A stretch of 10,912 nucleotides of DNA from a virus, in the IMG/VR virus record IMGVR_UViG_3300045988_035343, positions 1-10,912 of that record; one strand, written 5' to 3'. The notes under the pieces are model-generated. The model searched no databases and had not been told where the DNA came from. It saw nothing but the letters and a program-made list of their open reading frames with translations. How positions within the stretch are numbered: position 1 is the first letter of the stretch; each line of letters starts with the position of its first letter. Both the position numbers and the translations under genes were made by a program. This document shows positions 1 through 10,912 of the stretch, one piece after another.

Positions 1-105
1 AGCCAAATATGCACAAACACCCCCTTTTTAACATTTCCCAACACATTTTTAACATTCGCCAATAGAGTTTGGCACGCTTTTTGCATAGGCCGTGCCAAAC
101 CTCCA
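1..105. repeat. Left inverted terminal repeat (perfect 105 bp)
   Basis: Nt 1-105 (AGCCAAATATGCACAAACACCCCC...GTGCCAAACCTCCA) equal the reverse complement of nt 10808-10912 base for base, and the match breaks at nt 106. The repeat contains an 11-bp direct repeat TTTTTAACATT at 25-35 and 46-56 (21-bp phasing). It also contains an internal inverted repeat TTTGGCACG (68-76) / CGTGCCAAA (91-99). Confidence 0.97.
70..85 (+). promoter_or_regulatory. Sigma-54-type -24/-12 consensus match (TGGCACG-CTTT-TTGCA) inside the left ITR, pointing inward
   Basis: This is an exact match to the canonical RpoN promoter consensus TGGCACG-N4-TTGCW, with GG and GC at the correct spacing. It is one of four copies of the longer motif TTGGCACGCTnTTTGCATA. 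Promoter function is not shown, and it could instead be an origin or protein-binding element. Confidence 0.4.
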
Positions 106-107
106 CG

Positions 108-147
108 AAGAAACAAAAAATAGCGTACCAAAATAGTTTGGCACGCT
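108..147 (-). terminator. Rho-independent terminator after the last (tail) gene
   Basis: The minus strand reads AGCGTGCCAAA-ctat-TTTGGTACGCT, an 11-bp stem with one G-U pair and a 4-nt loop. It is followed directly by ATTTTTTGTTTCTT. It begins 14 nt after the stop codon of the 607-aa ORF. The pairing is better on the minus-strand RNA than on the plus strand (A-C mismatch). Confidence 0.75.
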
Positions 148-154
148 ATTTGCA
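139..154 (+). promoter_or_regulatory. Second sigma-54-type consensus match (TGGCACG-CTAT-TTGCA), left subterminal, outside the perfect ITR
   Basis: This is an exact TGGCACG-N4-TTGCA match. Its TTTGGCACGCT half also forms the distal arm of the 108-147 terminator hairpin, so its role is ambiguous. Confidence 0.3.
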
Positions 155-161
155 TAGGCCG

Positions 162-1985
162 TTAATCTATAAATACACCGCTTTGCAATAAATTAACAAT
201 TTCGTTGTACTCACTTTTGGGTACATTGTCAATACCATTATTTACAATCTCGTCAAACTTGTAAAAACCTTTTGCACATTGAGAAAGTACAACTTTTTTG
301 TAGTCATTGCCGCGTGTATCGCTGTACTCATTAGTGAAGTAATTAAGCCTTATAAAAGGCTCAAGGCCGTATAAATTTTGTGCGTCCCACCTATCGCTAC
401 CTATTACGCTTGTATCGTACGTTGTGTACAATATATCCGTATTAGGTTGTACGTTATGTAATTGTATCGGTAAATCGTTGCTATCCAACAATTTACAAAC
501 CCCGTCACCGCTAATTACATTAATATCATACACTAACTTTACCGACTTACCGACATAATCAGAAGACAAATTAACAATACCCACGAACGGCAAAAATACC
601 TCGATAAGCATATCTTTGTCTAGTGTGGTGTTATCTTTACGTGGTATTGTGATACCTCCAAAATCCAACGTTATTATATCCTTTTCGGGTAACTCTGCGT
701 TAATTTCGGTATCGTAGTTGCCGCATTTTATTCGGTCCGTGCCTTTTGTAGGTATGTGCGTATAAATACGCTTAATTCTGTTAACGTACTCGCTCAAATC
801 TTGCTCGTACGTTATAAACGTACCGCTTTCCGTGAAGTACCGCTTTTTGCTGAAAGCATCGAGGTTGTCTAATGTCACAACATACACGTTAATAGAACCA
901 TAATTTTTAATACTTGGCTGTACCTCAACTTGCGCCCCTCCACGAAATTCTATGTACTCAGTTTTGGGGCATTCGGTTGCGATGTCAAGTGTTATGCTAC
1001 CTTGTTTGCCGTCTTCGCTCAGCGTGAAGAGTTTCTTTTCCACGCCCCCGAACTCATCAGTATAATGTAATACGGGGGGGTCTTGGTCGGCCTTAAATGT
1101 GCTACCTTCATTTGCGTGTATTGTAACGTTTACTTTGTCGGTCGGTGTGTAATAGGTCGGTATATTTTCGGCCGTGCAATTATATAGGGTATTTTTAACG
1201 GGTATAGCCTTAATATAAGTACCATTAATAACCACCGACACAGAAGTATCTACATTTGTTATTGCTATGGTTGCGGTGTCGCTGCTTTGTATGGTCATAT
1301 TATCAGTATGCGAAGTACCGCCCGTATCTGTGTACGTTACGTTGGTCGCTTGTATAACATAGCCGCTTTGTGTGCCCTTTAGTGTTAGGTTGAAAGTGCC
1401 ATTATCGTACGTATATGTAGCGTTTGTGCCGTCTATGTTATTTGTTATGGTAATGGTAGGTGTACTTTCGGCAACCTCCCCGTTAAGTGTAAAAGTACTA
1501 TTTTTGGCAGCGTCATCTATGGTAAAAGTAGCCTTGCTTTTGTCCGTACTTATTACACCGTTAGCTGTGGAAGTACCCCCAAAACTATCAGTGTACGCAC
1601 AAGTAGGCGCGGTGTTGAATTGATACCCAGTATCAGCGGTAACTACAATGGTATGTACATCACCGCTTACACTATATGTATAGGTAGTGTTTACTATATT
1701 GTTTGTTATCGTTGGTTCTGCGGGGGCATCGGGGTCTACCTTAGTAGCACCCGTTAAACGTATATTTGTACCGCTAACACCATTAAATTTGCAAGTTTTT
1801 AAGTCGGTAGACACTTTGCCCCTTACGCTGCCCCCTCCGAAATCATCATCAAATCGGGCGCGTGGTGTGGTTGTGGTGTCAAACAAAAATCCTGTGTCAG
1901 CGGTACTAACAATATTATACGCCCCTACACTTTCCGTATATGTAAATGTAGTGTGTGGTATTTGGTTTGTTATTATATCTGCCAT
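162..1985 (-). CDS. Tail protein, putative receptor-binding protein: four N-terminal tandem beta-rich repeats plus a C-terminal knob/anchor-like domain
   Basis: The 607-aa ORF is last in the structural module. Residues 1-355 form four diverged repeats sharing TNNI..T.YTY, TADTGY.F and YTD.FGG. The C-terminal ~250 aa contain FLPFVGIVNLSSDYVGKSVKLVYDI, which recalls the central YPY...ITD..G...L region of phi29 gp9-type knob proteins (from memory, not searched). Confidence 0.7.
   Translation of the reverse strand: MADIITNQIPHTTFTYTESVGAYNIVSTADTGFLFDTTTTPRARFDDDFGGGSVRGKVSTDLKTCKFNGVSGTNIRLTGATKVDPDAPAEPTITNNIVNTTYTYSVSGDVHTIVVTADTGYQFNTAPTCAYTDSFGGTSTANGVISTDKSKATFTIDDAAKNSTFTLNGEVAESTPTITITNNIDGTNATYTYDNGTFNLTLKGTQSGYVIQATNVTYTDTGGTSHTDNMTIQSSDTATIAITNVDTSVSVVINGTYIKAIPVKNTLYNCTAENIPTYYTPTDKVNVTIHANEGSTFKADQDPPVLHYTDEFGGVEKKLFTLSEDGKQGSITLDIATECPKTEYIEFRGGAQVEVQPSIKNYGSINVYVVTLDNLDAFSKKRYFTESGTFITYEQDLSEYVNRIKRIYTHIPTKGTDRIKCGNYDTEINAELPEKDIITLDFGGITIPRKDNTTLDKDMLIEVFLPFVGIVNLSSDYVGKSVKLVYDINVISGDGVCKLLDSNDLPIQLHNVQPNTDILYTTYDTSVIGSDRWDAQNLYGLEPFIRLNYFTNEYSDTRGNDYKKVVLSQCAKGFYKFDEIVNNGIDNVPKSEYNEIVNLLQSGVFID
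921..1985 (-). repeat. Four tandem diverged protein-domain repeats (about 91, 85, 86 and 93 aa) within the tail protein
   Basis: Repeat boundaries at aa 1-91, 92-176, 177-262 and 263-355 were found by aligning recurring motifs: ITNxI-xxTxYTY, (V/L)TADTGYxF or KGTQSGYVI, (Y/F)TDxFGG, and a Thr/Ser-rich beta-strand pattern. The repeats are visible at the protein level only; the DNA copies are diverged. Confidence 0.8.
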
Positions 1986-1986
1986 A

Positions 1987-2427
1987 CTATTTATTGCCTT
2001 TAAGTGTTACCATTATAATACTACCTTCTTTGTCAAAAAGTTTTGAAGTAGGAAAGTTTAATATTTCCGTATGTGGGAAAACGTTGAACACGTTACTATT
2101 TACTGATAAATCGCGGTTTGCGTTGTCGCTCTCCACTATTAACGCGGTACTTTGTAAGATAACATCTTTGTACGTCTGTAGTACATCGAGCGACAGAGTA
2201 AGTAAATACGTATTACCACCCACGTATCTAAAATTGTCTACAAAGTAGTATTTTTTGAAATCCTCCAAGTAAACGTAATTAAACCCATACATATTAGGGG
2301 GCATTTGTATTTTTAGCGTTGGATTATGTACATTTAATTCGGGCCGCAAAGCAACGTTAAGCGTACCCAATGGCGTAAGTGCTTTGTTTATCGTGTTCGG
2401 TTGCCCCTTATAGTTATATAAAATCAT
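1987..2427 (-). CDS. Tail knob/tube protein, N-terminal-domain-only homolog (phi29 gp9-like)
   Basis: In the 146-aa ORF, FNYVYLEDFKKYYFVDNFRYVGGNTYLLTLSLDVLQTYKDVILQSTALIVESD resembles the recalled phi29 gp9 segment YIMFQN..GNKWFYAFVTELEF...[26 protein letters not shown]. phi29 gp9 is about 600 aa, so this ORF covers only its N-terminal part. It ends TAG-T-ATG directly before the 607-aa ORF. Confidence 0.65.
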   Translation of the reverse strand: MILYNYKGQPNTINKALTPLGTLNVALRPELNVHNPTLKIQMPPNMYGFNYVYLEDFKKYYFVDNFRYVGGNTYLLTLSLDVLQTYKDVILQSTALIVESDNANRDLSVNSNVFNVFPHTEILNFPTSKLFDKEGSIIMVTLKGNK

Positions 2428-2430
2428 CGT

Positions 2431-2467
2431 AATAAAATTAAAAAAAGGTGGTGTATATTACACCACC
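2431..2467 (-). terminator. Rho-independent terminator immediately after the capsid gene
   Basis: The minus strand reads GGTGGTGTA-ata-TACACCACC (9-bp GC-rich stem) followed by TTTTTTTAATTTTATT. It lies between the capsid gene stop (2489) and the start of the next gene (2427). Confidence 0.85.
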
Positions 2468-2488
2468 TTGAGCCACAATATTAACTAA

Positions 2489-3661
2489 TTATGCAACAAA
2501 GAAAACAACAAAGTTTTCGTTTGTGTCATTAAAATATCCTGCGTCAAACTTGTAATAGTTATTGAAGAACTCGGCCTTAGCGTTATAGTTAGTAGTTACG
2601 CGGCGGTTGAGGTTGCACACGCCCAACGCGTCTCTATCAAACATAACGCCTAACACACCGGTAATATCAACGGGTTTGCCGCCCGTCTCCTTGATTGTGA
2701 TGTGCGCCGTACTCGCAAATTCGTACTTCGTACCGCTACCCTGCCAAAATGGAACACTTTCCGCGTTCGGCAATAGTACCTGCTCTTTGTTGTACGTATC
2801 GCTGTACAGATAAGCACGGGCCGCCTTTTCAAAATCAGAGAGTAACACGACGTGTAAGTTTTCGCGCGGTGTAAAGCGTGGCTTACCTCCAATGTTGAAG
2901 ACGCTAGAAATACTTGCAAGTCTATCAGTGTACAAACCAATTGTATAACTTGCAAACTTGATAAAATCGGGGTCGGTAAGTGCCTTTGCCGCGGTCAAAG
3001 TAGTACCTTTGTTATCGTTGTACAACTTTAGCAAATTGACGCAACGCGCGGTGCTTGCGGTTGTGTAGTCTGTACTAACGTCACCACCAAAGGCCGCGCT
3101 ATCAGCTATTAAAGTTTGCGCAATCATATTGTTAATTGTACGCATTATTAACGCGTCTGTCTTAATGGTAATAGACTTTTCAACCGCGTTATAAATCATT
3201 GAGAGAAACGCGTTTAGTTGCTCAGCGTTAGAAAAACTTTCTTTTACTTGTCGCTCGGTTATAGAAACGGGCACCTCGAAAGTTACTTTGCTATTAAAGA
3301 ACTTTGCCGTAACTTGTGGCTTGTGGAAGACGTCTTGTGAGTAGTCGGTGCCGTCCGTTAGCTCCCAACTTTTGTTTTCCTCGGCTTCGGGTAAGTCCGC
3401 ACTAATCTTTTCAAGCACTGAACCGAACTCCCACGCGTCCATAAGTACAGAGGGGATTTTGCCCGCGTAAGGACGATTGACAAACACAACTTTGCCAATG
3501 TGGTTAACAAGTGATTTAACGTAATTGTCGACTGCATTTTGGTTAAAAACCTCATTGCCCAAATCGACCAACCCCGTTAAATCTTCACTTACAAGTTCAG
3601 ATTTGCCTAAAACCTCTTTAGACACTGAATTAATAAGGGTGTAAATTTGTTTTACTTCCAT
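2489..3661 (-). CDS. Major capsid protein (phi29 gp8-like, HK97-fold class)
   Basis: The 390-aa ORF sits in the structural module with its own promoter and terminator. VDNYVKSLVNHIGKVVFVNRP, NAFLSMIYNAVEKSI and the C-terminal FFNNYYKF resemble the recalled phi29 gp8 segments NDFITSLVDRIGLVVIRQ, SFVSSIINAIYNSAE and YWNYYYHVW. There is no Ig-like C-terminal extension. Confidence 0.82.
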   Translation of the reverse strand: MEVKQIYTLINSVSKEVLGKSELVSEDLTGLVDLGNEVFNQNAVDNYVKSLVNHIGKVVFVNRPYAGKIPSVLMDAWEFGSVLEKISADLPEAEENKSWELTDGTDYSQDVFHKPQVTAKFFNSKVTFEVPVSITERQVKESFSNAEQLNAFLSMIYNAVEKSITIKTDALIMRTINNMIAQTLIADSAAFGGDVSTDYTTASTARCVNLLKLYNDNKGTTLTAAKALTDPDFIKFASYTIGLYTDRLASISSVFNIGGKPRFTPRENLHVVLLSDFEKAARAYLYSDTYNKEQVLLPNAESVPFWQGSGTKYEFASTAHITIKETGGKPVDITGVLGVMFDRDALGVCNLNRRVTTNYNAKAEFFNNYYKFDAGYFNDTNENFVVFFVA

Positions 3662-3662
3662 G

Positions 3663-4232
3663 CTAGTATATTAATTTAGTTATATCATTTATAATTGCAA
3701 AAATAATGCTTTTGCGCCAATTTTGCAAATTAAATTCAATTTCTTTTGTAAGTTCGTCCGTTGGCGATTTTGAGCCAAGGCCCACAACCTTTTGCGTACT
3801 TACAACATCGTTAGTACGTGTATTGTCGTACGTGGTACTATCTTTGTCGTACTCCACGAAATCCGTTGCGTTGTATGGTTTGTTAGACGCTACATTTGTA
3901 TTGTTATTGTTGGCGTTTTCCGTGGTCTTGTCTTCGCGCGTTGTCTGCTGCTGTATAGGGTTAAGTACATCATATTGGGCATTGTACGCATTTGCCACGC
4001 GTACCCAATTATTAACACTCAACGCAATTATATTTTTTATGTACTCATTTGCGTTTGCTTGTGTTATTGTGTTTATGCACTCGCGCTCGCTGTAGTTGAG
4101 TAGTACAAGTGTATCAAGGCCGACACTATCAAGGTCACCGAATATTGCAGCGTATTCCGTGGGGAAATTAGCCTTGAACACCTCCGTAAATAGTCCGTGT
4201 TTAGGGTCGGGGTATAGGTCAATTATTTTCAT
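3663..4232 (-). CDS. Hypothetical virion/assembly protein (scaffold or head-tail adaptor / lower-collar candidate)
   Basis: The 189-aa ORF lies between the portal and capsid genes, overlapping the portal gene by 14 nt and ending 1 nt before the capsid ATG. It has a globular N-terminus, an N/T/D-rich low-complexity centre and a helical C-terminus. No motif was recognised, so the function is inferred from position only. Confidence 0.55.
   Translation of the reverse strand: MKIIDLYPDPKHGLFTEVFKANFPTEYAAIFGDLDSVGLDTLVLLNYSERECINTITQANANEYIKNIIALSVNNWVRVANAYNAQYDVLNPIQQQTTREDKTTENANNNNTNVASNKPYNATDFVEYDKDSTTYDNTRTNDVVSTQKVVGLGSKSPTDELTKEIEFNLQNWRKSIIFAIINDITKLIY
3698..3729 (-). promoter_or_regulatory. 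Bacteroidota-type sigma-A promoter for the capsid gene (TTTG-N20-TATTTTTG)
   Basis: The minus strand reads TTTG-caaaattggcgcaaaagcat-TATTTTTG. This matches the Bacteroides consensus of -33 TTTG and -7 TAnnTTTG with a 20-nt spacer. The -7 element ends 36 nt upstream of the capsid ATG and is embedded in the 3' end of the 189-aa ORF. Confidence 0.6.
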
Positions 4233-5244
4233 TTTCTTCTTCCTTTTCTTCGTCCGTTTCGGTCTCCGTTTCGGTTTCCGTTTCTTTGTCCGTTTCGGTT
4301 TCTGTTACTTCATTTTCTTCTTGTTCAGTATAATTTTGGCTATTATCAGAAGTATTATTTTTATTATCTTCATTTTCTTCGTTTTCGGTTTTATTTTCTT
4401 CTTTTCTTATCGCCCAACTACTTGCAAGTTCAACACTTATTTCCGTTCCAAACATAGCGTTTATTTTTTCCACGGCCTTTTTGCGCTCTTGTAGCATATT
4501 GTCAACGTAGGGGTTTAGGGCGTCCACATTCATTTGCACCTCGGACGTGTTCAGCCGCTCGCGCTTTAAGTTGTAGTTTGCATTCAACCCAATTTCATTA
4601 AACGCCGACGCCTTGAAGTATTGTAATAACTCAATAAGTTGCGTTATTTGGTTGGCGCTTTGCGTGGATATGCTTTGCAAGTTCACGCCCTTAAAAAATG
4701 CGTTTTCGCCTATTACGGAAAAATCGCCCTGCAAAATCTTGTTTATGAAGTCGTCAGCGCTTTGCTTTGTCTTATCATCGCTCGCACTTATTAACATGGT
4801 GATACGAGAGAGTACAGAACACGTGTTCAGCGACAAAAGCGTATCAGAACACAATACACCATATTTACCAAAGATAGGTAAAAGACTATTTGCACCGCTA
4901 TCGTTTTTTATCAATACGCCCTCAACGTCTATTTTATACGACTTGTTGATGTTTAGAAAGGGGTTACTTACAATGTATTCTGTAGCCTCATTGTACGCGT
5001 TTGGCGTACCTCCAAGGCCGCCAGTAAAAGCGTACATTTTGCCTTCTACCTCAGTTACAAAAACATTGCCGTTTGTCTGCAAAAGATTTTCTAAATTGTT
5101 TTGCGGTAACGTATCGGGCAAACCTTTGTACTCAAACATTGCTTGTGTTATGGCTAACATTTTGCGTATGTAGCCATTTACGCTTTTATCTTTGTTTTTT
5201 ATTTGCTCTTGATACTTTAAGTATAAGTTATCTTTCTTTGCCAT
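4219..5244 (-). CDS. Portal (upper collar / connector) protein, phi29 gp10-like, with a ~60-aa acidic low-complexity C-terminal tail
   Basis: In the 341-aa ORF, MFEYKGLPDTLPQNNLE resembles phi29 gp10 LFEWENLPPTINPSFLE, and NLKRERLNTSEV resembles NLEKKERMVTDEV (recalled). The size is typical of Picovirinae-type connectors. The C-terminus is EENKTENEENEDN...TETETDKETETETETETDEEKEEENENN. Confidence 0.88.
   Translation of the reverse strand: MAKKDNLYLKYQEQIKNKDKSVNGYIRKMLAITQAMFEYKGLPDTLPQNNLENLLQTNGNVFVTEVEGKMYAFTGGLGGTPNAYNEATEYIVSNPFLNINKSYKIDVEGVLIKNDSGANSLLPIFGKYGVLCSDTLLSLNTCSVLSRITMLISASDDKTKQSADDFINKILQGDFSVIGENAFFKGVNLQSISTQSANQITQLIELLQYFKASAFNEIGLNANYNLKRERLNTSEVQMNVDALNPYVDNMLQERKKAVEKINAMFGTEISVELASSWAIRKEENKTENEENEDNKNNTSDNSQNYTEQEENEVTETETDKETETETETETDEEKEEENENN
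4254..4301. repeat. Imperfect 12-nt tandem repeat x4 (CCGTTTCGGTYT on the plus strand) encoding the (Thr-Glu)n tract of the portal tail
   Basis: The four units are CCGTTTCGGTCT, CCGTTTCGGTTT, CCGTTTCTTTGT and CCGTTTCGGTTT. On the coding strand they correspond to (ACN-GAA)n. Confidence 0.85.
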
Positions 5245-5434
5245 TTGTCAAAGTTTTTATTAAGGTGCTTAACTCGCTTAAAACTTTGGTGTTATCCTCC
5301 AAAGTTGTTCGTAGGTTGTCAGTTTCTTCTTTGTGCTGCTCATCGTGCTTTGTCATGTAGTAAAATACTATGAGACACATTGCGATAGGAAAACCAACGT
5401 TTGAAATCATTTGTGTAACTTGTGGAATATCCAT
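5228..5434 (-). CDS. Small single-pass membrane protein, holin-like (BhlA/UviB-like architecture)
   Basis: The 68-aa ORF has one N-terminal hydrophobic helix (VGFPIAMCLIVFYYM) followed by a charged, coiled-coil-like tail (KHDEQHKEETDNLRTTLEDNTKVLSELSTLIKTL). A promoter-like element lies just upstream. It overlaps the portal start by 17 nt. Confidence 0.5.
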   Translation of the reverse strand: MDIPQVTQMISNVGFPIAMCLIVFYYMTKHDEQHKEETDNLRTTLEDNTKVLSELSTLIKTLTNGKER

Positions 5435-5454
5435 TTTGTAAGGTTTTATTACTG

Positions 5455-5486
5455 CAAATGTACAGAAATTATTTTATACTTACAAT
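5455..5486 (-). promoter_or_regulatory. Bacteroidota-type promoter candidate (aTTG-N20-TACATTTG) upstream of the holin-like/portal genes
   Basis: The minus strand reads ATTG-taagtataaaataatttctg-TACATTTG. The -7 element is perfect, the spacer is 20 nt as at the other two sites, and the -33 element matches 3 of 4 positions. The -7 element ends 20 nt before the ATG at 5434 and overlaps the ATPase stop region. Confidence 0.45.
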
Positions 5487-6584
5487 GTTCGTTTTGGCAG
5501 AAGTCATTAAATAATTTCGTACAATTTCGCCAACCTCATTATTTTGGTAAAATACTTTATCAGTTGCAAAGTACCGCGCTACTTGACTCTCTAAGTACGT
5601 TGCACTACTTATTAACTTGCGCTTGTAGTTTGGTTTTCCGTTCATCTGTAGGCTGTATATTAGTGCGTTTTCGGGGTCTTTTATTGGGGTGGTCTTCATG
5701 TGGATATATGTAAAATTTTCGCCCCCGTGCTGTATTATGTTACCCTGTAGTATGTATTCGTTAAACACAATATAATACACAAATAACACGTCTTTAGGGG
5801 TGTATTTAGTGGGCAAATGTGGGTACGCTGCCATTTCCCATTTGCCGCCTGTTATCATTTCTAAATTTTGATTGTCAAAGCAAAAATACTTGTTACTTGC
5901 TTTTTGTTTAACAATGGTACTGCAATACTCCACCGCTACAACCGCGCCATGTTGCCCAAACTTGTATATGTCGATAGTGCCTTGCTCCATGTTCGTTACT
6001 TGCTTTAGGCCCATTTCGGTAAAGTAAGGGCAAAACTTGTTTATAGTATTGCCCAACATAAAAACTTTAACGTTGTCGCGCTGTCGTATTATGGTACTTA
6101 ACAAGTTCATAAATAGCATGAATTCATCGGGCAAATAGTATCTACGAGTTAAAAACTCATCAAAAACAATTGTAGTAACATTTGGGTAACTGCTGCTTTT
6201 TTCATGCTCTTGCTCTGACAAGCAAAAGCCATAGCAAAAGGGTGTAGTTTGCGGTACGTACTTCTTTTTTTCGGGGTCGTACTTTGCAAGATACCATTTA
6301 CCACCGATATAAAACACGGAGTTAAATTCTCCCTTTGTTATTTCTTCTATGTAGCCATTTGCCACGTGGTTAGCAAACAGATTTTCTGCACGTTTGCCGC
6401 GTAAATCCTCACGCCACCTACGTATATAGGCCATTTGTTCACCCGTTTGTACGTACTTCTTGATACCATACGCCAAAGTGGCGTATGTTTTGCCGTTGGA
6501 ACGCTCGCCAAATATTATATTGTAATCTGCCTTTTTGTTTAATATGTTGGTGAGTGAGTAAAATTTTATAGGTTCTTTCTTCAT
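5469..6584 (-). CDS. DNA packaging ATPase (phi29 gp16-type encapsidation protein)
   Basis: The 371-aa ORF has Walker A FGERSNGKTYA (phi29: GARGIGKSYA). Walker B YPNVTTIVFDEF is almost identical to the recalled phi29 YPNVSTIVFDEF. GEQMAYIRRW resembles GEQFIYVRRY. The size matches gp16 (332 aa). Confidence 0.93.
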   Translation of the reverse strand: MKKEPIKFYSLTNILNKKADYNIIFGERSNGKTYATLAYGIKKYVQTGEQMAYIRRWREDLRGKRAENLFANHVANGYIEEITKGEFNSVFYIGGKWYLAKYDPEKKKYVPQTTPFCYGFCLSEQEHEKSSSYPNVTTIVFDEFLTRRYYLPDEFMLFMNLLSTIIRQRDNVKVFMLGNTINKFCPYFTEMGLKQVTNMEQGTIDIYKFGQHGAVVAVEYCSTIVKQKASNKYFCFDNQNLEMITGGKWEMAAYPHLPTKYTPKDVLFVYYIVFNEYILQGNIIQHGGENFTYIHMKTTPIKDPENALIYSLQMNGKPNYKRKLISSATYLESQVARYFATDKVFYQNNEVGEIVRNYLMTSAKTNIVSIK

Positions 6585-6593
6585 TGTTCAAAT

Positions 6594-6609
6594 TGTTTCA
6601 CGTGGAACA
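6594..6609. promoter_or_regulatory. 16-bp near-palindrome TGTTTCACGTGGAACA (copy 1), candidate operator
   Basis: It lies in the 28-nt gap between the PolB stop and the ATPase start, 9 nt from the ATPase ATG. Its exact reverse complement occurs at 10252-10267. The core is CACGTG. Confidence 0.5.
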
Positions 6610-6612
6610 TTT

Positions 6613-8799
6613 TCAATCTTTTAGTTTTATACCCTTTAGGTAATTAAGGTACATAACACTTAAAGATAAGTTATAACTTGTTGGCTCTAAGTGTACACCG
6701 CTATTCTCTGCAAATGTACACTTTTTACCCCTATAGTCGGTAACTTCACCATTTATTTTGTAGTCTATGTATGTATGTATGTTTTTTCCTGTGGCCTCGC
6801 ACGGAAATTCTAAATAATTTGTAAACGCGTTAAATATGTTGTCACCATACTTTTTAACAAGATAGGGTATCGCGGCCTTTTTGTTTACACCGCTAATTGT
6901 TAAACTATATTCATAACTTTTACCGCCTACGTTTAGCGCGTTTTCTTCCTGTATCATGTACCGCTTTGCGCCTAACGTCTTAAAACGTTTATATGTGCCT
7001 TCGTAGTCCCAAACGCCTAAAGTTTTAGTAACGCCCTTAATTGTTTCGGGTTCGCATTTGGCAAAAGGTATATTGTGATGTTTACAAGCGGCCTTTAGTT
7101 TGTTATATACTACATTGTTGTACATATCAAAATACCGCTTATGTGCTGCTGCATTCTTTAACTTTATGCTGTCAGTATCGCTGTAAATGTAATCTTGCTT
7201 TGTATCATAGATAGCGGTAAATAAATTGCGCCTTGCATAGGCAGTGACGAAGACGCCCCACGGGTAAAACAAAAAGCGGTTTTTGCTTTCGTTGTACTTC
7301 TGCAACATTTCTGCTTTTTCCGTGTCTGTTAGTGTGTTTTCGTCCCAATGTCCGTCATATACAAACTCATCGCGCAAAGGGTTAGTAACACACATACCGT
7401 AGCAACTATTTAACATCTCCTTGCTATTTAGGTACTCCACTTCTTTGCCTTGCACGCCTTTTAACTTTGTCTTATTTTCGTACAAATCTAAGATTGTGCG
7501 TACAAAATCAGTTGGCAAATAGTCTGCCTTATAACAATACATCGCACCAATACGGACACCTCCCCACGTGTAAAAGTTGCGTATTATGTTGTAGTCTATA
7601 TTTGTTATTGTAGTGGCTACCTTTGCAGCGCAAACTAAACGGCCGTTGTTTTCCACGTGATTTACCTTGACATAACATTTGCTTACGCTTATTGGGTTAT
7701 CCTGTAACTCTTTTGCAAAGATGTTGGTAAATTCAACGTCAAAAATACAAAGGTACTTACTTGTGTAGTACTCAAATTCTTTCATGTTTTTAGGCTGTAC
7801 CCTTACACCTTTCGACATAGGGAATTTTTCCGACACCATAACATAAGGGTAACTACTTGTAAAATCGTAACTTGCAACGTCTTCACAAATTTCGTCTATG
7901 TGGTTAGCGTTTCCATGAGTAAAGCCGCCACTAAACGCCCTTTGTAACATATTAAATTCATGCAGGCCGTTGATAGTTAGCGAGTGGATTAAATTTATAC
8001 ACTGCCAATTACGCTCGGTTTTGCCGTTTACCTTTTTACTTAACATCGCTTTGCGGCAATGCTTACGTACATAACCCGTTTTTGTTAGGGGCAATCTTGT
8101 TATTAACTTGTTTTGCTCTAATTGCTCTTGTATGTAGTTCATAACTACTTTTATATCATTCACGCAATAAAGCAATTCTTTCGGGGTTAGTTCGGTTTTG
8201 GTGTGTCTTATTTTGGTGTAGTCCAAATCTCCAACCATTTTTGCACACTTGTACTTTTGTAGTTGTTCGCCTAACTTTGCAAGGTTGTAGCCGCTTAATA
8301 AGTAGCTGCACCTAAATTCTATGCCTATTGTAGTAGTTGCGTATAATGGTTTGCGTAAGTCAATGCTAAAAACCTTTTCCCACTCAAATAAGGTACGCAA
8401 AAATTGAAATTCATAAGATAAATTGTGTATATACACAATTAGTTTTTTGTTGGTGGATAACTCCAAAGTTTTTTCTATAGTGTTACACATGGCGGTAAAC
8501 TCGTCCCATGTACGGCCTACTATTACGTACCCATTTATACCAAATTGCCACACGTACATAATAGCACACTTTTCCATTTTTACGCCTAATTTGGTGTACT
8601 GCTCGTATGTGTATGTGTTGCCGTCTTCGTCTCGATAAAAACTACTTACTTCAATATCAAAGGCACAAGGGATATTGTAAAACTTACACCCTTTGTTATT
8701 GCTTATTACGTTCTTTTCGTTTACGGCCAACTGCAAAATATCTTTTATGTCGGTGGCCTTATAAATTCTACTATGTTGCGCATATTGTACCTTTTTCAT
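6613..8799 (-). CDS. Protein-primed family-B DNA polymerase
   Basis: The 728-aa ORF carries all expected motifs:
- ExoI: AFDIEVSS.
- ExoII: YIHNLSYEFQF (phi29: FHNLKFDGAF).
- ExoIII: YCVNDIKVV.
- Motif A: DFTSSYPYVM.
- Motif B: KEMLNSCYGM.
- Motif C: YIYSDTDSI.
- KxY: LGAKRYM.
There is room for TPR1/TPR2-type insertions. It sits on an ITR-bounded linear genome. Confidence 0.97.
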   Translation of the reverse strand: MKKVQYAQHSRIYKATDIKDILQLAVNEKNVISNNKGCKFYNIPCAFDIEVSSFYRDEDGNTYTYEQYTKLGVKMEKCAIMYVWQFGINGYVIVGRTWDEFTAMCNTIEKTLELSTNKKLIVYIHNLSYEFQFLRTLFEWEKVFSIDLRKPLYATTTIGIEFRCSYLLSGYNLAKLGEQLQKYKCAKMVGDLDYTKIRHTKTELTPKELLYCVNDIKVVMNYIQEQLEQNKLITRLPLTKTGYVRKHCRKAMLSKKVNGKTERNWQCINLIHSLTINGLHEFNMLQRAFSGGFTHGNANHIDEICEDVASYDFTSSYPYVMVSEKFPMSKGVRVQPKNMKEFEYYTSKYLCIFDVEFTNIFAKELQDNPISVSKCYVKVNHVENNGRLVCAAKVATTITNIDYNIIRNFYTWGGVRIGAMYCYKADYLPTDFVRTILDLYENKTKLKGVQGKEVEYLNSKEMLNSCYGMCVTNPLRDEFVYDGHWDENTLTDTEKAEMLQKYNESKNRFLFYPWGVFVTAYARRNLFTAIYDTKQDYIYSDTDSIKLKNAAAHKRYFDMYNNVVYNKLKAACKHHNIPFAKCEPETIKGVTKTLGVWDYEGTYKRFKTLGAKRYMIQEENALNVGGKSYEYSLTISGVNKKAAIPYLVKKYGDNIFNAFTNYLEFPCEATGKNIHTYIDYKINGEVTDYRGKKCTFAENSGVHLEPTSYNLSLSVMYLNYLKGIKLKD

Positions 8800-9434
8800 A
8801 GTCCGAAGTTATTGAATTCGTCTAATATGCTGTTAATCTCGCTTTCTACTTCGTTTGTTAGTTTGTTGGCCTCGCTTTCAATATTGCTATCTATAGCATT
8901 TTGTAGGCTTACGGCTTCACTTTCAATTTGTTCGCTAGCGTCTCGTGCGCTTTGTTCCAAATCTCCTGTAAAATCTTTGTACTTCATCAAATACTTTTCT
9001 ACAAAATCGCTATCGCTTAGGCTAGTTAGCTTTTCGTTTAATTTGTCGGCCATTAAATTAAATTCTTTGTCTGTAAGGCCGTACGCGGTTTTTAGGTGGT
9101 CATTGTACGTTCGTGTGCCTTGGGCGGTACTCGTAGGCTGTCTTAAAAAAGATACGGCCTTTGCGTACTCTGTTTTTATTTCGTCCCAACTTTGGCCGCT
9201 TACAGAAAATTTGCTATAGCCTTTAATATCTCCTTTGTTTAAGGCTGTTACCGCGGGGCTTAATAACCCTTTGTCTTCAATGTTTTGTATTCTTCGGTTG
9301 GCCTGCTGAAATACGCGTCTTACTTCCTTTCTTAGTTCGGGGCTACTCTCAACGCTTTGTATGATATCCTGCCTTAACTCTGTACGTTGAGTTGCTGTAA
9401 ATACGCTTTGTTTGTATCCTATCTTGTTAGGCAT
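8796..9434 (-). CDS. Terminal protein candidate (replication primer)
   Basis: The 212-aa ORF is immediately upstream of the polymerase and translationally coupled to it by an ATGA overlap, as in the phi29 gene 3 - gene 2 order. It has a basic N-terminal half (ELRKEVRRVFQQANRRIQNIEDKG) and an acidic helical C-terminal half. The pattern is loosely similar to the phi29 TP N-terminal region. No diagnostic motif exists, so the call is positional. Confidence 0.55.
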   Translation of the reverse strand: MPNKIGYKQSVFTATQRTELRQDIIQSVESSPELRKEVRRVFQQANRRIQNIEDKGLLSPAVTALNKGDIKGYSKFSVSGQSWDEIKTEYAKAVSFLRQPTSTAQGTRTYNDHLKTAYGLTDKEFNLMADKLNEKLTSLSDSDFVEKYLMKYKDFTGDLEQSARDASEQIESEAVSLQNAIDSNIESEANKLTNEVESEINSILDEFNNFGL

Positions 9435-9437
9435 AGT

Positions 9438-9479
9438 CTTAAAATTAAAATAGGTAGGTAGTTATATGCTACCTACCTA
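9438..9479 (-). terminator. Rho-independent terminator/attenuator between the early cassette and the replication genes
   Basis: The minus strand reads TAGGTAGGTAG-catataa-CTACCTACCTA (11-bp stem) followed by TTTTAATTTTAAG. The next ATG (9434) follows within 16 nt. The design (hairpin + TTTTAATTTTA + start codon) is the same as the terminator at 2431-2467. Confidence 0.75.
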
Positions 9480-9492
9480 TATTGTTGTATGT

Positions 9493-9846
9493 TTACTTGT
9501 CCTTAAAGGTTATGGTATGGCAGTCTCGGCCGTGGCTCTCGTACTTTCGTACTACAAAACCAACTTTGCCGCCCTTGATGTCATTTACCGCGTCCGTATT
9601 GTTTACGATGTCATTAAATACCTTTGTTAGGTATATAGGCATATCAACACGCTTTTTAATGTCAGACATCACTATCACGACTTTTACACCAAATTTGCCG
9701 CGTGTGAAGTAAAAACCATCGAGCGCGTGTACCTTATTAGGGTCAGCGTTGTATAACTCTTTAAGGCTCGTAAAGTCGTATCCTTTAAGGTTAAACTTAA
9801 AAGGGTTAACATTGCCCTTATTATACGTTTCTGCAAAACTTGTCAT
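9493..9846 (-). CDS. Hypothetical early protein (possible ssDNA-binding protein, by position and size only)
   Basis: The 117-aa ORF is the last gene of the early cassette, just upstream of the TP/Pol genes, where phi29 encodes its 124-aa SSB (p5). It looks beta-rich (FGVKVVIVMSD, GKVGFVVRKYE). No sequence motif was recognised. Confidence 0.45.
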   Translation of the reverse strand: MTSFAETYNKGNVNPFKFNLKGYDFTSLKELYNADPNKVHALDGFYFTRGKFGVKVVIVMSDIKKRVDMPIYLTKVFNDIVNNTDAVNDIKGGKVGFVVRKYESHGRDCHTITFKDK

Positions 9847-9857
9847 AACTGGGTACT

Positions 9858-10028
9858 TTAATTGTTAGCTGTATGTTCGTTGCTTAGGTTCATCAAGAAG
9901 TTTCTAAACTTCGAGATTTTAAGAAGTGTGCGAGTATTCGCGTTAACTTCTTTGGTGGTCATAAGCTGGCCTAATGATGTACAAGCGGTAAATATCGCTT
10001 CATCAAATGCGTTTCTTTCTTCGTTCAT
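9858..10028 (-). CDS. Hypothetical small early protein, 56 aa (absent from the supplied ORF track)
   Basis: Manual translation gives MNEERNAFDEAIFTACTSLGQLMTTKEVNANTRTLLKISKFRNFLMNLSNEHTANN*. Its ATG overlaps the TGA of the upstream 69-aa ORF (ATGA). It fills an otherwise unexplained 178-nt gap in a tightly packed same-strand operon and stops 11 nt before the next ATG. Confidence 0.6.
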   Translation of the reverse strand: MNEERNAFDEAIFTACTSLGQLMTTKEVNANTRTLLKISKFRNFLMNLSNEHTANN

Positions 10029-10234
10029 TTTTTCTGATACTTTAAAAGTGTGTTGTGATTAATATGTGTCGTGTCGGTGGTTACGATTGTCGTGCGGCCG
10101 CTGATGTCGGTTTGTCGGTACATTGAGCAACTTTGCAAAGCCATGCAAAGGATGTAAAGTACAGAGACCAAAACAAGCACATAAGAGATACAAAAAAGAA
10201 ATGTACCTACGCTCTTTAAAATCTTCTTTTTCAT
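10025..10234 (-). CDS. Small membrane-anchored early protein (possible lipoprotein)
   Basis: The 69-aa ORF has an MKKK start and a ~24-aa hydrophobic segment (GTFLFCISYVLVLVSVLYILCMAL) followed by LQSC, which is lipobox-like, although the segment is long for a signal peptide. The tail is Thr-rich. This ORF was preferred over the overlapping alternative-frame ORF 10059-10268. Confidence 0.6.
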   Translation of the reverse strand: MKKKILKSVGTFLFCISYVLVLVSVLYILCMALQSCSMYRQTDISGRTTIVTTDTTHINHNTLLKYQKK

Positions 10235-10251
10235 TTCGTTTTGTTGGTTTG

Positions 10252-10267
10252 TGTTCCACGTGAAACA
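10252..10267. promoter_or_regulatory. 16-bp near-palindrome TGTTCCACGTGAAACA (copy 2), candidate operator
   Basis: It is the exact reverse complement of 6594-6609. It lies in the 48-nt gap between the 83-aa ORF stop and the 69-aa ORF start, 17 nt from the ATG. Confidence 0.5.
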
Positions 10268-10282
10268 TTTATATGATAGGTT

Positions 10283-10534
10283 CTAAACTCGCTTATTGAA
10301 ACGCTGCATATAAAAGTTGTTGGCGTTGTTTCGCTCACTCTCTTTCTTGTGCGAGACTTCAAGCGCCTTTAAGTCGGTGCTTATATTGTCTACTAATGTA
10401 GCCAAGTTGCCGAGCGTTGCCGCAACATCAAAAAGTAATTGCGATTTGTTACGGTCTGCTTCATACTCGACATTGTTACGAGTTACGCGCAAAATACGTG
10501 CAATTTCATCGTACATTTGTGGGGTGGTTGCCAT
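10283..10534 (-). CDS. Hypothetical early protein, all-helical, with a weak helix-turn-helix-like segment
   Basis: The 83-aa ORF is the first sizeable gene downstream of the right-end promoters. YDEIARILRVTRNNVEY loosely fits an HTH pattern (hydrophobic-A-x-x-L-x-V-T-x-x-x-V). This is speculative. Confidence 0.55.
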   Translation of the reverse strand: MATTPQMYDEIARILRVTRNNVEYEADRNKSQLLFDVAATLGNLATLVDNISTDLKALEVSHKKESERNNANNFYMQRFNKRV

Positions 10535-10552
10535 TGTATTATTGTGTTGGTT

Positions 10553-10573
10553 GCCCCACTGGTTGGGTGGGGC
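10553..10573. other. GC-rich hairpin GCCCCAC-N7-GTGGGGC in the right-end leader region
   Basis: The stem is 7 bp and entirely G/C-rich, in an otherwise AT-rich region 19 nt upstream of the 83-aa ORF ATG. On the plus strand it is followed, after 6 nt, by TTTTTATTT. On the minus (sense) strand no U-tract follows. It may be an RNA structure or a plus-strand terminator. Confidence 0.4.
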
Positions 10574-10674
10574 GTTACCTTTTTATTTAGTAAATAATTT
10601 ATCATTAAGCAGGTCAAACGTGTAGTTGGCTACTTGTTTCATAATCGTTTGCTTATTGTTTTATTTTTATATTG

Positions 10675-10706
10675 CAAAGGTAGTTACTTTGTACTCTCTA
10701 TGCAAA
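10675..10706 (-). promoter_or_regulatory. Bacteroidota-type sigma-A early promoter (TTTG-N20-TACCTTTG)
   Basis: The minus strand reads TTTG-catagagagtacaaagtaac-TACCTTTG, an exact -33/-7 consensus with a 20-nt spacer. It lies in the noncoding right-end region and is oriented toward all the genes. Confidence 0.6.
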
Positions 10707-10755
10707 TTTTTAGTCTTAAAATATCTTAAAAGGTTATTTTTTTGTTTTGTCGATA

Positions 10756-10771
10756 TGCAAAGAGCGTGCCA
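10756..10771 (-). promoter_or_regulatory. Sigma-54-type consensus match (TGGCACG-CTCT-TTGCA), right subterminal, oriented with the genes
   Basis: This is an exact TGGCACG-N4-TTGCA match on the minus strand, about 50 nt upstream of the sigma-A-type -33 element. It sits at about the same distance from its terminus (about 141 nt) as the left subterminal copy (about 138 nt). Confidence 0.4.
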
Positions 10772-10807
10772 ATATTATTTTTTAGGTGTTGCTTTTTCTT
10801 GCTATTT

Positions 10808-10912
10808 TGGAGGTTTGGCACGGCCTATGCAAAAAGCGTGCCAAACTCTATTGGCGAATGTTAAAAATGTGTTGGGAAATGTTAAAAAGGGGGTGTTTGT
10901 GCATATTTGGCT
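10808..10912. repeat. Right inverted terminal repeat (perfect 105 bp)
   Basis: It is the reverse complement of nt 1-105. Confidence 0.97.
10828..10843 (-). promoter_or_regulatory. Sigma-54-type consensus match inside the right ITR, oriented inward and with the genes
   Basis: This is the mirror copy of 70-85: TGGCACG-CTTT-TTGCA on the minus strand. Confidence 0.4.

Follow-up and report, generated by a model that had tools for sequence, protein, structure and literature searches.

The termini of the Bacillus phage phi29 (Salasmaviridae) begin with 5'-AAA and carry inverted terminal repeats (ITRs) of 6 nt. The window, by which we mean the whole 10,912-nt stretch of viral DNA analyzed here, shares this AAA terminus (at base 5) and has the PolB catalytic motifs, gp16-type ATPase, and connector and capsid families of phi29. 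In contrast to phi29, it has ITRs of ~100 nt in a genome about half the size, a PolB of ~25% identity, a tail knob divided into two genes, a single transcription direction, no head fibre, appendage or gp13-type genes and no detectable prohead RNA.

Phi29-like phages of Gram-negative hosts with genomes of 11–14 kb have been described as the Astrithrvirus-like group (cluster 23 of Evseev et al., 2024; PMC11476376). We compared the window with its nearest cultured relatives, which belong to this group: Salmonella astrithr, Astrid and assan, Pectobacterium DU_PP_III, Acinetobacter Phanie, Shigella vB_SHGBLB0004 and Vibrio K58 g2. These phages are likewise linear (10.4–11.9 kb), with ITRs of 66–247 nt (only 18 nt in the astrithr record). 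Five of them (astrithr, Phanie, DU_PP_III, the Shigella phage and K58 g2) have the same order of nine core genes: terminal-protein candidate, PolB, ATPase, small membrane protein, connector, ~185-aa protein, capsid, ~146-aa knob part and large Ig-like knob protein. Protein identity to the window is only 41–60% (PolB 41–46%, capsid 55–60%), and a nucleotide-level search found no match to it among the cultured relatives. By these sequence comparisons, the window belongs to a lineage sister to the Astrithrvirus-like group. Furthermore, the CHAP endolysin of the cultured relatives is absent after its tail gene, and their reversed cassette of small genes at the far end is replaced by four unrelated small genes located upstream on the same strand.

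An uncultured sister clade (L013, L014, L015, L023 and L024; IMG/VR and MAG contigs of 11.4–12.2 kb) is closer, with 66% identity in PolB and 76% in the capsid protein. It shares the core genes, the promoter type, a 117-aa early gene and the ITR anatomy of the window (AAA terminus, TTTAACAT boxes and a TTTGGCACG...GTGCC element). However, its ITRs are longer (~250–275 nt) and include the promoter, which is therefore present at both ends and would let transcription enter from both, whereas genomes of the window's clade combine a short ITR with a single promoter and a single direction of transcription. The sister clade also carries an M15 endolysin (M15 peptidase) in its reversed end cassette, unlike the window's clade, which has no lysin. 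Taken together, the window very probably represents an uncultured podophage of the phi29 type whose linear genome is complete here. The phage comes from a gut lineage sister to the Astrithrvirus-like phages, with Bacteroidota as the most likely host.

Genome ends and completeness

A perfect inverted repeat of 105 nt (positions 1–105 and 10808–10912, 100% complementary) touches both ends of the window and extends to ~120 nt when mismatches are allowed. The minus strand has 13 non-overlapping ORFs between the repeats; together they fill 93.2% of the window, with intergenic gaps of −17 to +61 nt. The contigs of four relatives (L007, L009, L010 and L019) start exactly at AAATATGCAC, which is found at base 5 of the window. 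In three others (L006 at both ends, L008 and L024) the end of the TruSeq adapter (...GATCT) is joined directly to AAATATGCAC or to its clade equivalent, AAAGGTACAC. The outer 4 nt of the window (AGCC at the left, GGCT at the right) lie beyond this common terminus and occur in no relative. Because the relatives stop at the same nucleotide and adapters are fused to it, bases 1–4 and the last 4 nt are probably non-genomic, the true termini are probably bases 5 and 10908, and the real genome length is probably 10,904 bp, the perfect repeat being 101 nt long. The AGCC present at both ends was counted against our preferred reading.

These outer bases, and the presence of a few relatives within chimeric contigs of greater length (L040, 33.9 kb; L007), could also indicate that the repeat is an assembly artefact or that the contig is only part of a larger element (a prophage, plasmid or longer phage). 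We consider this highly improbable. Assemblies made independently (JGI, ENA, Logan and NCBI MAGs) have the same ends and the same size (10.3–12.2 kb), adapters adjoin the terminus in relatives, and the gene set is complete for a phi29-type phage of this group. One junction of L040 cuts through the middle of the ITR and its other end has the exact terminus followed by unrelated DNA, a structure that points to a chimera rather than integration. The terminus was joined to unrelated DNA in two assemblies, as expected at a free DNA end. Completeness of the genome is thus well supported by sequence comparison. The original prediction of an entire, ITR-bounded, protein-primed phi29-type genome holds in this respect, as does its description of about 13 tightly packed minus-strand genes. 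The one-strand layout that it contrasted with phi29 also differs from that of the nearest relatives.

Replication genes and elements of the terminal repeats

The genes named in the original prediction for PolB, packaging ATPase, portal, capsid and tail-knob-like proteins were all recovered in Pfam, PHROGs and profile searches. PolB (6613–8799, minus strand) matches PF03175, phrog_1907 (6.7e-71) and the phi29 polymerase 1xhx (2.1e-11), and the Pfam and PHROGs matches confirm it as a protein-primed polymerase. It retains all of the catalytic residues of the phi29 enzyme except Asp66 of Exo II, which is a glutamate in 34 of 34 family members and in the Astrithrvirus-like polymerases.

The upstream gene (8796–9434, minus strand) codes for an all-helical protein of 212 aa with invariant T101, S102 and Y148. 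It belongs to a family of 2993 database homologues on contigs of up to ~11.6 kb. The 4-nt ATGA overlap with PolB that led to its proposal as a terminal protein is present. However, sequence-profile and fold searches with the protein did not retrieve the phi29 terminal protein and gave no match to any solved or predicted terminal protein. Its position and family conservation make it a candidate for this role. By analogy with phi29, replication would initiate at both ends, with the 212-aa protein priming opposite the terminal 3'-TTT and PolB copying by strand displacement.

Inside the left repeat are two TTTAACAT boxes 21 nt apart (27–55, plus strand), which are mirrored at the right end and nearly invariant across clades (conservation of 90% or more per column among 11 sequences). 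They are candidate binding sites of replication proteins. Next to them is a palindrome, GTTTGGCACG-N14-CGTGCCAAAC (67–100, plus strand; mirrored at 10813–10846), that contains an inward-pointing sigma-54-type motif (TGGCACGCTTTTTGCA, 70–85, plus strand). This ITR motif is absent from the cultured phages. A second sigma-54-like copy at the left end (139–154, plus strand) forms one arm of a hairpin at 118–151. At the right end, a second motif (TGGCACGCTCTTTGCA, 10756–10771, minus strand) points inward upstream of the early promoter.

Expression signals and host

A Bacteroidota-type promoter (TTTG-N20-TACCTTTG, 10675–10706, minus strand), which sets the window apart from the cultured relatives, lies upstream of all genes. 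Every complete contig of the window's clade keeps it ~200–300 nt from the end, and in the various clades the conserved form TTTG-N19-21-TAnnTTTG stands where a promoter would be expected. Shine-Dalgarno-like sites precede 0–1 of 13–16 genes, versus 5–10 of 13–15 in the proteobacterial relatives. A TTTG/TAnnTTTG promoter and scarce Shine-Dalgarno sites are typical of Bacteroidota. These expression signals suggest that the host is probably a gut Bacteroidota. The relatives come from gut and faecal MAG bins; however, the taxa of these bins are inconsistent (Prevotella, Scatosoma, Melainabacteria and several Bacillota), which was counted against a Bacteroidota host.

Transcription would proceed in one direction from this promoter near the right end, beginning with four early genes on the minus strand. 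The first codes for a helical protein of 83 aa with no assigned function (10283–10534); hhalign links it weakly (61%, 8e-5) with a gene of 82 aa that the L013 clade carries in its reversed end cassette. It is followed by a small lipoprotein of 69 aa (10025–10234), whose signal peptide has a lipobox, LQ[SG]C, conserved in 16 relatives and for which family searches gave no match. A 56-aa protein with no assigned function (9858–10028) comes next. The fourth, of 117 aa (9493–9846), is found only in the uncultured clades and has no family or PDB matches; its position and size suggest an ssDNA-binding protein.

A pattern scan identified 15 hairpin sites, against 11.0 expected in shuffles. Three minus-strand hairpins may be terminators, judging from their positions. 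The first, of 12–13 pairs (9450–9480), separates the early and replication genes and is a candidate attenuator. Another, with 11 pairs followed by TTTTTAATTT (2445–2469), comes directly after the capsid gene. The third, at 118–151 (15 pairs and a T-run), directly follows the last gene and pairs better on the minus strand, with a G-U pair in place of an A-C mismatch on the plus strand. They would divide the transcript at 9480–9450, 2469–2445 and 151–118 into early, replication/packaging/head and tail blocks. In addition, a quasi-palindrome, TGTTCCACGTGAAACA (19 nt, 95%), occupies the PolB-ATPase gap (6591–6609) and recurs at 10252–10270 between the 83-aa and 69-aa genes; the pair is a candidate operator or late-promoter element.

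Packaging, head and lysis

The following genes, all on the minus strand, code for a gp16-type DNA packaging ATPase (371 aa, 5469–6584; PF05894, 3.1e-22; phrog_2150), a 68-aa holin-like membrane protein that is syntenic in all relatives (5228–5434; phrog_4898, 3.1e-11) and a portal or upper collar connector (341 aa, 4219–5244; PF05352; phrog_2038, 7.8e-37). The connector has an acidic C-terminal tail rich in E, T, D and N, which derives from a 12-nt tandem repeat (4221–4304). A 189-aa protein (3663–4232) keeps its position across the whole group and forms a single-linkage cluster with proteins of the cultured relatives. A PDB profile search with it returned no match, and the function assigned in PMC11476376 indicates that it is probably a short lower collar or tail tube. 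The phi29-type major capsid protein (390 aa, 2489–3661; PF25622, 6.8e-54; phrog_2006) is the one that shares 55–60% identity with the Astrithrvirus-like proteins.

DNA would be packaged by the ATPase through the connector into a small phi29-type capsid. A search of the genome found no prohead RNA. Phi29 packaging requires this RNA, and its absence was counted against our preferred reading. Lysis would involve the 68-aa holin; Pfam, PHROGs and family searches recognized no endolysin among the window's genes as its cell-wall-degrading partner.

A divided tail knob and possible helper dependence

The tail is predicted to be minimal, with a short collar (the 189-aa protein) and a knob split into proximal and distal proteins. 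In profile searches, the proximal protein (146 aa, 1987–2427, minus strand) matched the N-terminal region of picovirus tail knobs, with hits to the major tail protein of phage C1 (4eo2, E=1.2e-5) and to the corresponding chain of 8egs, also a major tail protein (3e-4); its match to phrog_2248 (tail) was weak. The distal protein (607 aa, 162–1985, minus strand) has four tandem Ig-like domains (residues 1–350) and a C-terminal knob domain (366–607). AlphaFold2 modeled residues 1–350 mostly at 82–95 pLDDT per 10-residue block, and Foldseek matched tandem Ig/FnIII arrays. The C-terminus is homologous to those of the large knob proteins astrithr gp10, Phanie gp10 and relatives (hhalign 99.1%, E=1.8e-18).

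Phanie has this split knob and Ig-like array as well, and its virions reportedly require the contractile tail of the myophage Aci01-1 (Pourcel et al., 2024, as cited in PMC11476376). PMC11476376 proposes that this requirement may extend to further phi29-like phages of Gram-negative hosts in which the knob is split. By extension, the window could represent a helper-dependent, satellite-like phage, its virion becoming infectious only once the knob has attached to the tail of an unrelated phage infecting the same cell. Such a helper may also provide the missing endolysin. This reading would add to the preferred explanation rather than replace it, and we regard it as tentative and on balance unlikely. 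In its favour, fibre and spike genes are absent from the window and no endolysin is recognizable. In addition, L006, L010 and L012 have exchanged the whole knob module (the 146-aa and large proteins), whereas the remainder of the genome keeps ~95% protein identity, a pattern expected of a specificity determinant. One cultured relative, an Astrithrvirus, came from a nine-phage cocktail (PMC13097653), and the name 'K58 g2' could be read as pointing to another genome in the same lysate. However, the case for the window's lineage is indirect, and Salmonella phage Astrid, with the same knob architecture, was called a non-satellite in a 2025 preprint (10.1101/2025.06.18.659913). Furthermore, Phanie retains its own lysin, so lysin loss would fall outside the known satellite pattern. 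The original prediction had passed over the published helper dependence of Phanie, the absent endolysin, the Bacteroidota-type expression signals and the sigma-54-like ITR motif.

Genome size and place among tailed phages

The original prediction took the window for an autonomous tailed phage of a new miniature type, at or below the lower size limit of tailed phages. The window is indeed smaller than every retrieved cultured relative whose record shows terminal repeats (11,151–11,885 bp; deposited cultured isolates, 11,145–11,885 bp) and than the smallest isolated tailed phage cited in a 2025 preprint (11.6 kb). However, Vibrio phage K58 g2 (OZ195715) has 10,390 bp in a permuted record, in which two 232-nt ITRs joined head to head indicate that the sequence is complete. 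The metagenomic relative L037 has 10,298 nt with an ITR of ~133 nt and only ~18 nt missing at one end. 'Mini' genomes of 5–11.6 kb with HK97-fold capsid proteins have already been surveyed, the gene content and order of the window are those of the Astrithrvirus-like group (PMC11476376), and same-genus contigs are already present in IMG/VR (80–88% coverage x identity). K58 g2 and L037 already contradict the claim on size, and a limit set or broken by a new type is improbable. The window is a real genome, among the smallest of the tailed phages, but it sets no size record and represents no new virus type.

Genome ends and completeness

The window is a complete, end-defined linear genome with a phi29-type set of replication, packaging and head genes. 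A repeat search found that nucleotides 1–105 and 10808–10912 are fully complementary and extend to both ends of the window; with few mismatches allowed, the match is ~120 nt long. Whole genomes of 10.3–12.2 kb, each with inverted terminal repeats (ITRs), were also present in IMG/VR (13 contigs), in several ENA and Logan contigs and in MAG-binned contigs. Four of the related contigs (L007, L009, L010 and L019) start exactly at 5'-AAATATGCAC. Three others (L006, at each of its ends, L008 and L024) have the end of the TruSeq adapter (...GCTCTTCCGATCT) joined directly to that nucleotide or, in the sister clade, to the equivalent terminus AAAGGTACAC. The sister clade is a group of uncultured genomes of 11.4–12.2 kb (L013, L014, L015, L023 and L024). 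On comparative grounds, we take the ends to be real. The perfect ITR, together with the common start points and adapter junctions in relatives, supports the original prediction of a complete, ITR-bounded genome and agrees with the linear organization of the phi29-like class, with ITRs at defined physical ends.

Adapter remnants are found in both IMG/VR and MAG contigs (TruSeq at positions 1–49 and the other end of L006 and in L008 and L024; Nextera at positions 1–50 of L012). These database records are contaminated, yet the TruSeq cases usefully mark physical ends. In two contigs (L040 and L007) a phage terminus is joined to unrelated DNA. Phage termini are assembled onto non-phage DNA in L040 (1–960 and 12000–12161), a 33.9-kb contig that carries a SecA gene, and at the far end of L007. 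One side of the L040 junction cuts in the middle of the ITR and the other follows the exact terminus. Both contigs are chimeric assemblies, as expected at a free DNA end, and not cases of integration.

The terminus begins with AAA, the same start as the phi29 terminus and compatible with the sliding-back initiation of phi29. The outermost bases of the window, AGCC (1–4) and GGCT (10909–10912), are the same at both ends, sit outside the terminus common to all relatives and match none of the adapter ends of the relatives. Because AGCC lies beyond the shared terminus, we treated the outer four nucleotides at each end as probably non-genomic, which would leave a genome of 10,904 bp with a perfect ITR of 101 nt.

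Replication, packaging and head genes

The 13 ORFs are all on the minus strand, cover 93% of the sequence and are separated by gaps of −17 to +61 nt. Searches of Pfam and PHROGs assigned five of the genes to families: a protein-primed DNA polymerase of family B (PolB; 6613–8799, minus strand; PF03175; phrog_1907, 6.7e-71), a gp16-type packaging ATPase (5469–6584, minus strand; PF05894, 3.1e-22), a holin (5228–5434, minus strand; phrog_4898), the phi29 connector (4219–5244, minus strand; PF05352, 7.5e-17) and a phi29-type capsid protein (2489–3661, minus strand; PF25622, 6.8e-54). The core set of PolB with Exo and Pol motifs, portal, ATPase and capsid that had been read from the sequence at the outset was thus confirmed by these matches and by alignment of PolB to the phi29 polymerase structure (1xhx). 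Both the protein-primed polymerase with its Exo and Pol motifs and the trio of phi29-type capsid, connector and gp16 ATPase are defining features of the phi29-like class. Fourteen of 15 catalytic or motif residues of PolB are identical to those of phi29 in an alignment with the phi29 polymerase sequence. The exception is the Exo II aspartate (Asp66 in phi29), which is a glutamate at residue 130 of the window PolB and in 34 of 34 polymerases of the group, those of cultured phages included.

The portal has a C-terminal peculiarity of its own. A 12-nt tandem repeat (4221–4304) encodes a strongly acidic tail rich in E, T, D and N and runs into the beginning of the gene that follows. The length of this tail is variable, with portal-position ORFs of 296–345 aa in close relatives, and tblastn coverage of the window portal in relatives is merely 82–98%.

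The gene preceding PolB (8796–9434, minus strand) codes for a 212-aa protein whose ORF overlaps the polymerase ORF at an ATGA. The protein is homologous to the gene product encoded before PolB in all relatives, and this position is conserved. T101, S102 and Y148 are invariant in the family, and the AlphaFold2 model is all-helical (pLDDT 80). A nine-sequence profile searched against PDB sequences gave a best E-value of 0.12 and no terminal protein, and the model had zero matches at E ≤ 0.001 in PDB and BFVD; the top BFVD matches in the fold search were uncharacterised podovirus proteins. Profile and fold searches with this protein alike failed to recover the terminal protein of phi29, or one annotated as such elsewhere, so we infer its role and designate it a candidate terminal protein, which would prime DNA synthesis.

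An Rfam scan of the window for a prohead RNA (pRNA) returned no family at E ≤ 0.4; pRNA sequences diverge quickly. The sole large non-coding stretch (10535–10807) is not conserved, and relatives have a gene there. The window also has no tRNA genes and no Rfam families.

A split and exchangeable tail knob

The tail knob is split over two genes. The profile of the 146-aa protein matches the N-terminal region of PDB chains annotated as "major tail protein" from phage C1 (4eo2, 1.2e-5) and from entry 8egs (3e-4); these chains are the knob proteins of the C1 and Andhra tails, respectively. For the 607-aa protein, AlphaFold2 gave four Ig-like domains modelled with confidence (residues 1–350), followed by a poorly modelled C-terminal part, which is weak at residues 356–435 and 515–562. 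Foldseek searches with this model retrieved only generic tandem Ig/FnIII arrays, and neither sequence profile nor fold gave a direct PDB match for the C-terminal part. Residues 366–607 nevertheless share homology with the C-terminal ends of the large knobs in astrithr, Phanie and their relatives (hhalign 99.1%, E = 1.8e-18). Homology of the knob to phi29 gp9 and C1 gp12 was established in this way, through 4eo2 and 8egs for the N-terminal part and through the astrithr and Phanie knobs for the C-terminal part. The profile of the 189-aa collar candidate had no match among PDB sequences.

The two knob genes have been exchanged as a unit in three close relatives (L006, L010 and L012), and the gene of the terminal-protein candidate has also been exchanged in L006 and L010. 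The exchanged genes have 30–65% identity to those of the window, versus 91–97% protein identity in the remaining genome.

Relationship to cultured phages and genome size

No nucleotide match to the window was found with megablast in 50,697 GenBank phage records. The nearest records by protein include Enterobacter phage Entb_47, Shigella phage vB_SHGBLB0004 and Vibrio phage K58 g2, and identity to the nearest cultured records is 41–46% for PolB and 55–60% for the capsid protein. A core of nine genes in the same order and the split knob are shared with the annotated Astrithrvirus-like relatives. These phages belong to a group of Gram-negative phi29-like viruses (cluster 23) with genomes of 11–14 kb, a short lower collar, CHAP-like lysins, a knob in two pieces, the N-terminal one small and the C-terminal one large and carrying Ig-like domains, and no fibre genes (Evseev et al., PMC11476376). 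The lineage of the window is a new addition to this already described group. The genus threshold is ~70% nucleotide similarity (ICTV, as quoted in PMC11476376). Similarity to Astrithrvirus astrithr did not reach this level: there was no megablast match, no blastn alignment to the retrieved relative L001 was among the best matches, and protein identity is 33–59%. Nine fetched contigs (eight from IMG/VR and one from ENA) have 80–88% coverage × identity to the window and by the usual thresholds represent the same genus but different species.

The cultured phages and L013–L015 of the sister clade carry a reversed cassette of small genes at the far end, whereas in the clade of the window the small genes are four unrelated ones that lie upstream, on the strand of all the others. 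The single-strand layout, first noted as a departure from phi29, thus distinguishes the genome from its cultured relatives as well.

The genome is small but not at the limit for tailed phages, contrary to the original prediction that it would sit at or below it. The GenBank record of Vibrio phage K58 g2 (OZ195715; 10,390 bp) is circularly permuted, starting at the ATPase gene and cutting PolB. Its two 232-nt ITRs abut head to head in a perfect palindrome (7031–7494), which indicates a true linear genome of ~10.39 kb. A metagenomic relative (L037) of 10,298 nt, with an ITR of ~133 nt and ~18 nt short at one end, carries every gene of the set, its knob protein being shorter. Both are smaller than the window. 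Furthermore, deposited isolates of 11,145–11,162 bp are on record, and the 5–11.6 kb zone has already been surveyed in metagenomes (2025 preprint). Database homologues of the 212-aa protein number 2993, on contigs that top out at ~11.6 kb. Queries for exact copies of the PolB, capsid and 607-aa proteins of the window returned no record, but a 10,912-nt JGI/ENA contig carries a 100% match to the 607-aa protein.

Putative terminal promoters and probable host

Four elements of the ITR are conserved across clades: AAA at the terminus, a pair of TTTAACAT boxes (21 nt apart), the element TTTGGCACG...TTTG, which is invariant, and a GTGCC half-site downstream. The third is an exact fit to the sigma-54 promoter consensus (TGGCAC-N5-TTGCW). 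The window has four exact copies (TGGCACG-N4-TTGCA), two on the plus strand (70–85 and 139–154) and two on the minus strand (10828–10843 and 10756–10771), and a scan that allowed one mismatch at most found six sites versus 0.47 expected from shuffles. All copies are directed inward, at distances of ~65 and ~140 nt from either end. The clade of the window has the motif, as do L013–L015, L024, L037 and L039; the cultured proteobacterial relatives lack it. Its function may be that of a promoter, of an operator or of part of an origin. Since genes of the sister clade run inward from either end, a promoter of that direction in the repeat would be sensible on both sides. In the window the copies on the left are orphans, and the second of them forms one arm of a terminator-like hairpin after the knob gene. 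A pattern scan located hairpins at module borders.

A second inward-directed element, the Bacteroidota-type promoter TTTG-N19-21-TAnnTTTG, lies 110–370 nt from the end. It is present at one end in the clade of the window (10675–10706, minus strand, TTTG-N19-21-TAnnTTTG(CA)) and at both ends, within ITRs of ~250–275 nt, in the sister clade. This suggests that the layout of the window arose when the ITR became shorter and the cassette at the far end was lost. Transcription would start at the right-end promoter. A scan of the window with the sigma-70 consensus revealed no enrichment (36 sites versus 28.6 expected). We also identified a quasi-palindrome, TGTTCCACGTGAAACA, in opposite orientations in the gaps before the ATPase gene (6591–6609) and the 69-aa gene (10252–10270), with a further copy near the end of the sister-clade genome L014. 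This sequence may act as an operator or belong to a late promoter.

The TTTG/TAnnTTTG promoter consensus and translation initiation poor in Shine-Dalgarno sites are characteristic of Bacteroidota. Shine-Dalgarno-like sites number 0–1 per 13–16 genes here, versus 5–10 per 13–15 genes in the proteobacterial relatives. The promoter type and the scarcity of these sites together make a Bacteroidota host the probable one, though by no great margin of certainty. MAG bins were set aside as a source of host information because they name inconsistent taxa, and the SecA neighbour in L040 was rejected because the junction is chimeric. Just one metagenomic phi29-like candidate had earlier been proposed for Bacteroidota (PMC11476376).

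Small early proteins and lysis

The 117-aa protein was not identified in PHROGs or PDB, including in a scan of eight diverse members, and the 56-, 69- and 83-aa proteins had no match in Pfam and PHROGs. When compared with all other gene clusters, the 83-aa protein had a single weak hhalign link (61%) to an 82-aa gene of the sister clade, which BLASTP did not confirm. The 69-aa protein (10025–10234, minus strand) has a signal peptide with a lipobox (LQ[SG]C) that is kept in 16 relatives. The mature peptide of this early lipoprotein is ~33 aa, and it could be related to superinfection exclusion or lysis.

No window ORF matched a lysin family. The gene series ends with that of the large knob, beyond which are only 161 nt of non-coding DNA, and the CHAP-type endolysin expected downstream in Astrithrvirus-like phages is absent. 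A CHAP lysin is encoded next to the knob in the cultured relatives, downstream of it, and an M15 peptidase in the reversed cassette of the sister clade, whereas the window has no recognisable endolysin. Lysis would proceed via the holin plus a further partner.

Biological significance

The cultured relative Phanie is non-infectious unless bound to the contractile tail of its helper myophage, Aci01-1 (Pourcel et al., 2024, as cited in PMC11476376). The window shares the architecture of Phanie (split knob, Ig-like array and no fibre genes). It could be imagined that the virus is an obligate helper-dependent mini-phage of Bacteroidota that shed its endolysin and receptor-binding fibres, borrows a tail (and perhaps lysis) via the exchangeable Ig-domain knob and uses host sigma-54 promoters in its repeats, a scenario that we consider improbable.

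The lineage is abundant but undescribed, among the smallest of tailed phages and apparently on Bacteroidota. Its size is not news; the value of the genome is as a reference for the lineage and as a stripped-down gene set. With its precisely defined ends, the window can serve as a complete reference for this uncultured gut lineage. It illustrates the shrinkage of the tailed-phage gene set to 13 genes, without fibres or any recognisable endolysin, as well as a way in which a protein-primed genome can have its ends remodelled, from the long repeats of the sister clade, with an inward promoter at both ends, to the short repeats and one-way transcription of the window. Sigma-54-dependent promoters in the terminal repeats, if true, would be an unusual start of expression for a phage. 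And if helper dependence like that of Phanie extends to this lineage, it would constitute a widespread class of gut phage satellites.
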